Positions 52,112-53,583 of a stretch of DNA of 64,000 nt are shown piece by piece. The notes below the pieces were generated by a model. That model did not search any database. It had not been told where the DNA came from and saw nothing but the letters and a program-made list of their open reading frames with translations. Position 1 is the stretch's first letter, and every line of letters begins with the position of its first letter. A program made the translations under genes and the position numbers. The stretch comes from an uncultured Actinomycetes bacterium (GTDB lineage: Bacteria > Actinomycetota > Acidimicrobiia > Acidimicrobiales > JACCXE01): positions 50,404 through 114,403 of the forward strand of contig OY970363.1 of assembly GCA_963718605.1 (NCBI GenBank), given 5' to 3'.

Positions 52112-52327
52112 CTAACTCAAATCGCGGTCGGAGTGGCCCTTCCACAGCTTGTAGCCGCGGTTGCGCGCCTCTGCGAGGCGATCGGGGCCGAACGTTTGGT
52201 AGGTCTGAGCGGTGACGAGTTCGTCGACCAGCGCCGAGTCCAGGTCCGAAGCGTCGAGGTCATAGACGACTTGCGATCGCTTGTCGCCGAGAAACCGGTT
52301 GTGTTCGAAACGGGTGGGCCGACTCAT
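52112..52327 (-). CDS. Small hypothetical protein, 71 aa
   Basis: Typical codon usage; FLGDKR...FGPDRLAEARNRGY; abuts the hydrolase gene. Confidence 0.72.
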   Translation of the reverse strand: MSRPTRFEHNRFLGDKRSQVVYDLDASDLDSALVDELVTAQTYQTFGPDRLAEARNRGYKLWKGHSDRDLS

Positions 52328-52353
52328 TGCCGTTTGAAACTACCTGCAGACGC

Positions 52354-52386
52354 GCCGAAGGGGCACCACCGTGGCGCCCCTTCGGC
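52354..52386. terminator. GC-rich terminator-like hairpin
   Basis: GCCGAAGGGGC...GCCCCTTCGGC; no long U-tract. Confidence 0.65.
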
Positions 52387-52613
52387 TAGATAACTATCGG
52401 AAAGTCTCGCTGACCGGACTACGCAGGGAGGACGAGGCCTGCCCGGGGGTTCCAACGAGGGTGACTGGCGAGTATTCGCCGGGTGGTCCGACAAGCCGCC
52501 TTAGCGGCCAGCCACCTCCAGAGTCCTAAAACGTAAATGCATTCGCTGGACCACCTCCTTTCTCTGGTGCACGCAGTAAATCAGAAACCGAGGGCCTTGT
52601 GGTGGCATTTACG
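52354..52613 (-). ncRNA. Candidate structured RNA with two extended SD motifs and a 13-codon ORF (52501-52542)
   Basis: Several complementary segments, an 18/19 match to the 16S 3' end and a terminal hairpin; strand and ends inferred. Confidence 0.55.
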
Positions 52614-52665
52614 CGCGGTTCACAGGTGCCCCCGGAATTCGGCCCCAGCGGCATAGTTTCGGAGC

Positions 52666-53583
52666 GTGAGAACAACGACCCGGCGGGCCCTGATCGTGGT
52701 GGTAGCAGTCGCGGTGCTCGGTCTGTTCGGCGGACTGGTGGTGCACGACAGCGACCGTACGTTGTTCGGGCTCGGCTCCAAGAAGACTCCTCCGACCCTG
52801 GCCGACGGCTCCCCTGTCCCCACTCTGCCGAACGGCTCACCCGTCCCGACCTTCCGCGACCACACGCCCGTCCCGACAACTCCCGAAGGCAGGCCCATCC
52901 CGACCTTCGCGGACGACCCGAGAAACCTCGTGAACAAGGACGGCTCGCGGCGTCCGACCACCACGCGGTTCGTGGAAAGCAAAGAGGACGACCCGGAAGC
53001 AGAGTGGGGCCCCGTAGCCGACTGCCCGAACGCCGAAGCAACGCGGCCGGCCGTCCTGGTGGCACAGTTCACGCACACCGACAACACGCCGCTCAGCTTC
53101 GACCGCGCCGTCGGCATGTTGGACGAGGCCAACGTGTCGAGCGAGCGGCTACGCCGCCTCGGTGAAGCGCACTTCCTCGGCTTCATCGCAAACCCGGGGA
53201 CCGTTGGCTCTCTCATCGAGGGGGCTAGGCGGCTGGCCGCGCTCGCGCCCAAGAGTGGCGAGAAAAAGGTCGACGTAGAAATGCACTGTGAGGGTCATAC
53301 GCGCAGCGATGGAAGTATCACGCTGGTCTTGCCCGAGGGCATCGACCCCGATGCCGTTGTGTACCGCAACGGTTTTCGCGACACCGTCGACCGGACATTC
53401 TCGTTAAGCGACGAGCGCGGCGCGACGCTGTGGAGCCTGAAGACGGACAAGGACCACACCGTGCGTAGGGCGATCGCCTACATGCGCGACCGCGACGTGC
53501 TGGCGGCCTACCCCGGCGCCGGCTGCGCGGTGAAGAACGGCGACCCGAACCAGCCGGTGCCTTGCGGGCTGCGCGTCGGTTAG
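52666..53583 (+). CDS. Secreted/membrane-anchored hypothetical protein with four 9-aa Pro-Thr repeats
   Basis: N-terminal hydrophobic helix; DGSPVPTL/NGSPVPTF/DHTPVPTT/EGRPIPTF. Confidence 0.65.
   Translation: MRTTTRRALIVVVAVAVLGLFGGLVVHDSDRTLFGLGSKKTPPTLADGSPVPTLPNGSPVPTFRDHTPVPTTPEGRPIPTFADDPRNLVNKDGSRRPTTTRFVESKEDDPEAEWGPVADCPNAEATRPAVLVAQFTHTDNTPLSFDRAVGMLDEANVSSERLRRLGEAHFLGFIANPGTVGSLIEGARRLAALAPKSGEKKVDVEMHCEGHTRSDGSITLVLPEGIDPDAVVYRNGFRDTVDRTFSLSDERGATLWSLKTDKDHTVRRAIAYMRDRDVLAAYPGAGCAVKNGDPNQPVPCGLRVG

Follow-up and report, generated by a model that had tools for sequence, protein, structure and literature searches.

The window analysed here is a stretch of 64,000 nucleotides from the genome of an uncultured Actinomycetes bacterium of the order Acidimicrobiales (contig OY970363.1). 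One of its intergenic regions, a 338-nt spacer between divergent open reading frames (ORFs) of 71 codons (52112-52327, minus strand) and 305 codons (52666-53583, plus strand), houses an element that is a member of the Ms_IGR-5 family of small RNAs (Rfam RF02471, 'Actinobacteria sRNA'). The element combines a 19-nt complement of the 16S rRNA 3' tail, a conserved 13-codon reading frame and three covarying pairings that tie this frame into the fold of the RNA. The reading favoured here, and considered probable with some reserve, is of a stand-alone small RNA that engages the ribosome and is remodelled as the ribosome loads and translates, that is, a ribosome-gated switch; the family identity and the engagement of the ribosome are much firmer than the inferred cycle of events. 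A sequence-only reading of the same DNA had proposed a stand-alone minus-strand RNA built on two Shine-Dalgarno (SD)-like sequences with internal partners, which is upheld, and every sequence feature that it listed was recovered in place; it could name no known family, and there the Rfam match corrects it, at the expense of novelty.

The match to RF02471 spans the whole model (positions 1-184 of 184) on the minus strand with 38 bits and an E-value of 3.3e-7, against a curated cut-off of 45 bits, which is an operational threshold and belongs to a seed centred on mycobacteria. A gathering-threshold Rfam scan of the whole window returned nothing, and the match appeared only in an E-value scan of 52250-52750. 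The element is present in a single copy in the genome. Among 41 genomes of relatives, 28 have matches at E ≤ 0.01, including all ten others of the same family, and nine exceed the cut-off, including loci of the same genus (50.5, 50.5 and 45.6 bits). RF02471 matches 34 of 151 genomes of the class and 45 of 151 genomes sampled across the phylum (the unpublished genomes G310, G338, G405 and G294 among them), 22 of the latter over the cut-off. A separate model, R1, derived from 50 relatives, has matches in 99 of 151 genomes of the order (E ≤ 1e-5; the unpublished genomes G212, G267 and G195 among them) and at 97 of 100 chosen loci (E ≤ 0.01), which include Mycobacterium, Micromonospora and Nocardioides as well as a locus (L162) that scores 56.8 bits with R1 (E 2.6e-14) and 185 bits with the Rfam model. 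The window's element is homologous over the full model to IGR-5 of Mycobacterium smegmatis (ncMSMEG15794c), and the core members are linked to it by R1. The order of motifs is common to the window and the Rfam consensus: a 5' A, the extended SD, GGAC, GAGGUGGCUG, a stop codon, GGCGAAU, CAGUCACC and a 3' hairpin with a GUCC loop. The window's element and IGR-5 are both intergenic and single-copy, and they have in common the 5' motif, a second SD-like motif, an anti-SD partner and a 3' domain, whereas the window's lineage differs by an extra GGACCACC, a short insert after the stop codon and a fixed neighbouring gene for a 71-aa protein.

The first SD sequence of the element (SD1, AGAAAGGAGGUGGUCCAGC, 52545-52563, minus strand) is a 19-nt complement of the 3' tail of the organism's own 16S rRNA. 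The single 16S gene of the genome has the 3' end ...GCGGCTGGATCACCTCCTTTCT, to which the plus strand of 52545-52563 is identical at 18 of 19 positions, the agreement that had been reported for the actinobacterial 16S 3' end; in the minus-strand RNA the single mismatch is a G-U wobble. This complementarity is far beyond chance: only two sites in the 4.1-Mb genome offer at least 15 continuous pairs (Watson-Crick or G-U) with the 19-nt tail, namely SD1 and the antisense of the 16S gene itself. The predicted energy of the duplex with 16S rRNA is -37.4 kcal/mol for SD1, compared with -19.8 for a 12-nt SD and -8.7 for GGAGG. The core of SD1, AGGAGGTGGTCC, varies little or not at all in 50 relatives, and SD1 is invariant across phyla. 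The second 16S-like copy, seen earlier at 52504-52519, is confirmed; within it lies SD2 (GGAGGUGGCUGG, 52508-52519, minus strand), of which GGUGGCUGG encodes E-V-A and forms the 5' strand of a helix, P5, and GAGGTG is invariant. Three further minus-strand segments resemble parts of the 16S tail or complement SD1. Anti-SD1 (GGACCACC, 52482-52489), which mimics 16S GGAUCACC, occurs throughout comparisons within the window's order but, as judged by eye, is missing from many other lineages; anti-SD2 (CCAGUCACC, 52460-52468), for which CCAGTCACC had been given as the partner of SD2, is the 3' strand of P5; and a tail sequence, CUUUC (52400-52404), complementary to GAAAG of SD1, is only partly conserved, a CYUUY motif being found in the tail of 22 of 50 relatives.

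The mini-ORF MHLRFRTLEVAGR begins at an ATG at 52542, 5 nt after SD1, and continues for 12 further codons to a TAA at 52501 (52501-52542, minus strand). Its conservation was evaluated at 177 loci anchored on two invariant motifs, a set that includes 57 loci identified by RF02471. The GAG of SD2 is followed at exactly 15 nt by a stop codon in 167 of the 177 loci and in all 57 of the Rfam-model loci (TAG in 114, TAA in 31 and TGA in 22 of the 167), and the ten loci without it are chance or aberrant pattern matches. Among 147 unique sequences, no stop triplet occurs in frame 0 within the 21 nt before GAG, compared with 93 and 52 in the other frames; ATG, GTG or TTG within 13 nt after GGTCC, open and in frame, is found in 118 of 147 unique loops, compared with 7 and 31 for the other frames. 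The loci are related, so these counts are not independent; among 46 representatives with less than 75% similarity, in-frame canonical starts number 36 versus 2 and 9 in the other frames. The identities of the start and stop codons change repeatedly while position and frame hold. At the start position, the 57 Rfam-model loci have ATG (24), CTG (14), TTG (9), ATT or ATC (6) or GTG (2), with no start codon found by script in the remaining 2 of 57, and ATG is present in all 11 loci of the window's own family. The loci with CTG are L003, L006, L012-L014, L016, L021, L022, L024-L026, L030, L034 and L046, those with ATT or ATC are L002, L007, L009, L027, L029 and L048, and non-canonical start codons in the window's order always stand 2-3 nt after GGTCC.

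The peptide itself drifts. Codons 2-6 vary even within the genus (MHLRFR, MHLCFR, MHPSSR and MNLVSR), the length of the frame ranges from 12 to 19 codons across lineages, and the C-terminal x-E-V-A-x-R that recurs in most loci is nucleotide-invariant and lies inside helices. The proposal of a peptide-coding regulatory RNA stands in part: it comes close to the reading favoured here, but the reading frame is conserved and the peptide sequence is not, and translation rather than a peptide seems to be selected. The codons TTA, AGG and TTT, which had been called rare at this base composition, are so by the usage of 586 long ORFs of this genome (1% of Leu, 2% of Arg and 11% of Phe codons, respectively), and their presence in the mini-ORF is explained by constraints at the RNA level.

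Covariation was assessed in two alignments: A1, of 50 relatives, and A2, of 98 rows (one of them spurious) from several classes plus Acidobacteriota, the latter fitted to the nested helices of the model and so favouring them. Helix P1 joins CCAGA (52563-52567, minus strand) to UCUGG (52518-52522), the latter being within codons 8-9 of the ORF, just before GAG; in A1 two of its pairs covary (AU39/GC11 and GC32/AU16), as they do in A2 (CG39/AU38/GC13 and CG50/AU25/GC15/UA2), every cell being paired in both. A pseudoknot joins AGGAC (52523-52527, minus strand) in codons 6-7 to GUCCU (52429-52433) in the apical loop of the 3' domain. In A1, this pairing of (G/A)GGAC with GUCC(C/U) is 98.4% paired, with the changes GC39/AU8 and GC48/UA2; in A2 it is 89.1% paired, in columns that lie outside the model. 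P5 pairs GGUGGCUGG of SD2 with CCAGUCACC; 88-90% of its cells can pair, and the distal pairs show compensatory changes (CG41/UA5/AU1/GC1 and UA44/CG2 in A1, UA69/CG18/UG8 in A2). The covariation score in A2 is 0.333, compared with 0.117 in shuffles (none of 500 reached it) and at most 0.057 with slid partners. Thus the pairing of SD2 with an internal partner that the sequence-only reading had drawn is conserved (88% paired, with compensatory changes), and its suggestion to look for homologues and covariation yields three helices, P1, P5 and the pseudoknot, by which covariation ties the ORF into the predicted fold. RNAalifold applied to A1 revealed the pseudoknot pairing and missed P1 and P5.

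Other parts of the fold are less variable or alternative. An alternative helix, P2, of AGGAC with GGUCC of SD1 (GGUCC:GGACY) can pair in 99.2% of cells, and the earlier pairing of SD1 with GGACCACC is likewise conserved, being pairable in 93.5% of A1 cells with one-sided G-U changes. P2 and the SD1:anti-SD1 helix were rejected as demonstrated helices because SD1 never varies, which makes covariation impossible, and they are retained as alternative states. The small hairpins described earlier are present, as are the 13-aa ORF, the second SD-like copy, their partners and the 15-bp hairpin that closes the unit. P3 (52495-52508, minus strand), with the stop codon in its loop, is 87% paired in A1 with few double changes. 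P4 (52467-52480, minus strand; GGCGA-AUAC-UCGCC), containing the widely conserved motif GGCGAAU, varies at pair 112:122 (CG33/UA7/UG4). The 3' domain (52406-52459, minus strand) consists of nested stems that covary in the model-fitted alignment, around the conserved GUCC loop (52429-52433), whose motif is invariant (T137 and its neighbours). The minimum-energy fold (-98.6 kcal/mol, z-score -2.55) is a closed form in which SD1 pairs with GGACCACC and GAAAG with CUUUC.

The RNA is inferred to be about 215 nt long and transcribed as its own unit from the minus strand, from an A at 52568 to a hairpin at 52354-52386; separate transcription is deduced from a conserved -10-like box and the terminal hairpin. 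The putative start, the first position of the Rfam match, is an A that is nearly invariant in 50 relatives. Upstream of it, conservation points to a -10-like hexamer TTTACT (52575-52580, minus strand) with TG at -15/-14, and a TGTG....nnnACT / TANNNT pattern recurs in the upstream regions of relatives, 6-7 nt ahead of the conserved 5' A. Further upstream, an A-rich motif (GTAAATG, 52606-52612, minus strand, at about -38 to -44 from the inferred start) has a GAAAT-like counterpart kept at the same distance in 56 unique upstream regions and in named loci, and could act as an UP-like element or as the site of a regulator. The start region of the mini-ORF had been thought to pair with 52605-52613; a 9-bp inverted repeat is indeed present in the DNA, but as an RNA pairing it was discarded, its upstream arm lying about 40 nt before the inferred start within this promoter-proximal A-rich motif, and the loop sequence is not tracked by it in relatives (by eye). 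At the other end, the fold gives a terminator-like GC-rich hairpin of 15 bp that has no U run; some 170 nt beyond SD1, a hairpin of -25 kcal/mol or stronger occurs in 48 of 57 loci, and in 20 of 57 control regions. The RNA is assigned to the minus strand by the Rfam match, by the promoter-like elements and the hairpin at the end of the unit, by G-U pairs in covarying helices and by the folding z-scores (-2.55 for the minus strand versus -1.30 for the plus strand).

Short contigs of soil metatranscriptomes (four runs from four studies) cover 52451-52558 only, at a depth of up to 147, and no sequencing run contained at least half of the sampled words of the stretch. Several of these contigs, from different studies, end in Illumina adapter letters at 52534-52547, just 3' of SD1; such ends could mark a processed 5' end without SD1 or merely short inserts, and are too weak to define a processing site. 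Expression is better documented for homologues: the family member of Streptomyces lividans is validated by RNA-seq (PMC8079986), that of S. avermitilis is a separate small RNA transcription unit (PMC8780764), and that of M. smegmatis, listed as ncMSMEG15794c (PMC10454040), is NAD-capped with a +1A and described as 'validated but uncharacterized' (bioRxiv 10.1101/2021.12.14.472595). The homologues of M. abscessus and M. smegmatis carry ribosome footprints (PMC4974804); together with the conserved open frame, these bear out the idea that such RNAs engage ribosomes. In the literature searched, which did not extend to the original 2013 description of IGR-5 or to supplements, neither a function of the family nor the anatomy worked out here was found, and published small-ORF lists from mycobacterial ribosome profiling could already contain this frame.

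These features can be assembled into a cycle. The 5' end would serve as a landing pad for the small ribosomal subunit, and the second half of the ORF doubles as the 3' strand of P1, which closes the landing pad, as the pseudoknot strand, and as SD2, which an internal mimic of the 16S tail holds in P5. When folded, with P1, pseudoknot and P5 in place, the RNA would expose SD1 and the start codon, its positions 8-41 being single-stranded. The first structured base would then lie 15 nt after the A of the start codon, which is where the leading edge of an initiating ribosome is placed by established footprint geometry, so that the leading edge of a docked ribosome would abut the stack of P1, pseudoknot and P5. 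Elongation over 13 codons would have to melt all three, and termination at the stop codon in the loop of P3 would free the anti-SD-like strands and the 3' domain until refolding. SD2 ends 8 nt before the stop codon, and a terminating ribosome could keep SD2 on its own anti-SD; the internal 16S mimics CCAGUCACC, GGACCACC and CUUUC and the 3' loop would be unpaired meanwhile. In an alternative closed state, SD1 would pair with GGACCACC and the CUUUC tail. Given folded and closed states of this kind, the RNA would report on, or be gated by, ribosome loading. Candidate outputs are pairing of the freed anti-SD-like strands with SD sequences of other mRNAs, control of the RNA's own stability or decay, and titration of ribosomes or of free anti-SD.

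Several results weigh against this reading. The window's own RF02471 score falls short of the curated cut-off (38 versus 45 bits). A generic sigma-70 promoter scan found no site at the 5' end of the unit, and a T-run terminator scan did not call the terminal hairpin at 52354-52386. The metatranscriptome contigs derive from the conserved core of relatives, so that ends and strand cannot be read from them and the parts that they leave uncovered are uninformative. The minimum-energy fold of the single sequence is the closed state instead of P1, P5 and the pseudoknot, and A2 leans towards its model's nested helices by construction. In an alignment-free test, P5 strands paired with their own partners only slightly better than with swapped ones (9.49 versus 9.09 of 10 pairs), and because the separation is weak, the case for P5 relies on the aligned counts. 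The codons GAG GTG GCT have no synonymous variation, so that RNA pairing explains their conservation, which is silent on translation. Finally, the loci with CTG, ATT or ATC at the start position, codons against which initiation factor 3 discriminates in Escherichia coli, and the two where no start codon was found suggest that some of the window's order may translate the frame weakly or do without its translation.

That last observation also suits the interpretation of the RNA as a ribosome decoy, a sponge or parking site that binds and holds 30S or 70S particles through its 16- to 19-nt SD while elongation is incidental. A duplex with 16S of -37.4 kcal/mol that is unique in the genome, an SD1 invariant across phyla, a structured stack at the leading edge of an initiating ribosome and the tolerance of non-canonical starts in 20 of 57 loci all speak for such a decoy. 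The footprints on the homologues (PMC4974804) fit bound, non-elongating ribosomes equally well, and the M. smegmatis member is NAD-capped like the abundant, RNA polymerase-binding Ms1 (bioRxiv 10.1101/2021.12.14.472595). The decoy interpretation is nevertheless rather unlikely: without elongation it is hard to account for a stop codon whose distance is fixed (167 of 177 loci) and for a frame free of stops (147 of 147 loops). The same conserved in-frame stop and open frame fit poorly with the pure 30S trap entertained by the sequence-only reading. Because the frame is conserved, transit of the ribosome, and not docking alone, appears to be selected. A related and more speculative idea, to which only a small probability is assigned, unites docking with transit: Ms_IGR-5 RNAs would be the ribosome's counterpart of 6S RNA and Ms1, decoy mini-messages that occupy free anti-SD and are each reset by one round of translation of a 12-19-codon frame.

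The remaining alternatives are quite improbable or worse. In 32 of 177 loci the RNA is followed on its own strand by the 71-aa gene, 223-360 nt from SD1 (1369 nt in a 33rd locus, L032), with the hairpin in between, an arrangement that would suit a cis-acting leader in which the RNA and its mini-ORF attenuate read-through into that gene. Such a leader is quite improbable, since a TANNNT box of the gene itself is present in 29 of 33 loci, other lineages have other neighbours (including convergent genes, by eye) and the RNA ends in its own hairpin; the homologue of S. avermitilis is a separate unit (PMC8780764). Nor did inspection of the fold by eye show the ORF region pairing in an alternative way with the terminal hairpin, and there is no shared run of codons for one amino acid, codons 2-6 varying freely; the class of leader-peptide attenuators was accordingly rejected, on the lack of an alternative hairpin pairing, the downstream gene's own -10-like box and the varied neighbours. 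A micropeptide gene, with the 13-aa product of a tiny mRNA as the active molecule, is slightly less credible again. Its frame, start and stop are conserved and x-E-V-A-x-R recurs in most loci, but codons 2-6 differ freely within the genus, the conserved C-terminal codons are nucleotide-invariant within covarying helices, the length varies from 12 to 19 codons, and about 150 nt of conserved structured RNA follow the stop codon. The 18/19 copy of the 16S 3' end on the plus strand had also suggested an anti-SD RNA of that strand, an rRNA-end remnant or chance. These are largely refuted and scarcely credible: similarity to 16S ends after 19 nt, the window has no small-subunit rRNA match and the single 16S gene lies elsewhere, the Rfam match is on the minus strand only, the G-U pairs of covarying helices would become C-A on the plus strand, where the fold z-score is -1.30, and the unit is conserved in 99 of 151 genomes of the order.

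The favoured reading, a small RNA switched by the ribosome that translates it, can be compared with known systems. The printed Rfam structure of RF02471 pairs GGUGGU of SD1 with GCUGCC and is without P1, the long-range SD2:anti-SD2 helix and the pseudoknot; it probably needs revision. Like the dual-function and liberated leader RNAs, such as SgrS/SgrT, RNAIII/hld and, reportedly, rnTrpL/peTrpL of Sinorhizobium, the element is a small stand-alone transcript in which a short frame is combined with conserved structured RNA, but its peptide is not conserved and its frame is embedded in its own long-range helices. The rpsO/S15 pseudoknot, at which the 30S subunit is entrapped or stands by on a folded mRNA, likewise places an exposed SD beside a pseudoknotted fold that is opened after docking; in the window, the SD is far longer, a second SD is held by a 16S mimic, and the RNA does not serve as leader to a ribosomal protein gene. 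As in the substrate mimicry of 6S RNA and Ms1, the SD:anti-SD duplex and the 16S tail are imitated, by the SD2:anti-SD2 helix and by the split GGACCACC/CUUUC, and the M. smegmatis family member is NAD-capped, as is Ms1 (bioRxiv 10.1101/2021.12.14.472595). Here, however, the putative target is the ribosome instead of RNA polymerase, and the conserved frame implies turnover by translation. The Caulobacter RNA CC2171 (RF01867) has a consensus that starts with GAAAGGAGGUGAUCCAG, the same kind of extended SD; membership of that family was rejected (18 bits versus a cut-off of 75, E 0.12), the likeness being limited to the SD and the terminal hairpin.

Beyond the covariance models, an exact-pattern scan of one genome per species gave at least 120 loci, ten of which are chance or aberrant matches, eight of these inside coding sequence. 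The matches listed include Mycobacterium, Micromonospora, Nocardioides, Pseudonocardia, Nonomuraea, Solirubrobacteraceae and Acidimicrobiia (with Microthrix and Ilumatobacteraceae). Outside the phylum, the matches listed comprise metagenome-assembled genomes (MAGs) of Acidobacteriota, a Leptospira and a MAG of Syntrophobacter. These members agree with the rest in SD, frame, position of the stop codon and covariation of P1, have longer frames (as many as 19 codons) and in three cases, all acidobacterial, exceed the RF02471 cut-off. The loci outside the phylum are L076, L081, L085, L093, L094, L098, L105, L107, L133, L151, L155, L156, L163 and L175. Because members occur in Acidobacteriota, Leptospira and Syntrophobacter, the name 'Actinobacteria sRNA' is too narrow. 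With E-values of up to 1, the Ms_IGR-5 model also matches the control genomes of Caulobacter vibrioides and Thermus thermophilus. Analogous RNAs led by a long SD may exist in other phyla.

In the window's order, the RNA lies directly upstream of a leaderless-looking gene, the conserved hypothetical gene for the 71-aa protein (52112-52342, minus strand, including a TAGTTT -10-like box 9 nt before its ATG). All loci with this neighbour are of the lineage type and architecture of the window. A TANNNT box stands 11-17 nt before the start of the gene in 29 of 33 loci. The gene is thus probably driven by a promoter of its own, giving a leaderless or near-leaderless mRNA, and the -35 region of the gene overlaps the terminal hairpin of the RNA. 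The protein (consensus MxRPTRFEHHRFLGDKR...FGPDTLAEARNRGYRLWKGH) belongs to no Pfam or NCBIfam family, and none of its 2041 homologues is named. Its AlphaFold2 (AF2) model is of moderate confidence (pLDDT 78.6). A resemblance to the N-terminal domain of Ada was rejected (best Foldseek match with E 0.65 and TM 0.46; the protein lacks Cys), and a profile search of the PDB gave only a designed protein (E 0.01). The divergent 305-aa ORF (52666-53583, plus strand) encodes a hydrophobic segment at the N-terminus and, after it, proline-rich near-repeats (GSPVPTLP, GSPVPTFR, TPVPTTP and RPIPTF) and belongs to no Pfam family. Mycobacterial loci lie after a gene resembling class IV aminotransferases (by eye), and no conserved neighbours were seen by eye at six loci outside the window's lineage.

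Taken by itself, the window yields a modest result, one more member, below threshold, of a family already described. For the family it is of wider consequence, since Ms_IGR-5 is filed as a non-coding small RNA and yet ranks with the more widely retained small RNAs of the phylum. The picture that emerges has four parts, a landing pad that complements almost all of the single-stranded 16S tail, an open frame with a drifting peptide, an SD2 locked by a 16S mimic, and a pseudoknot between the frame and the 3' domain; in it the ribosome would be the ligand and translation the switch, a hypothesis that can be taken to cultured relatives. Leaderless mRNAs are common in Actinomycetota, and if the picture is true, it bears on the balance between SD-dependent and leaderless initiation. 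Were the decoy mini-message idea true, the pool of free RNA would track the availability of ribosomes and could shift initiation between SD-led and leaderless mRNAs.

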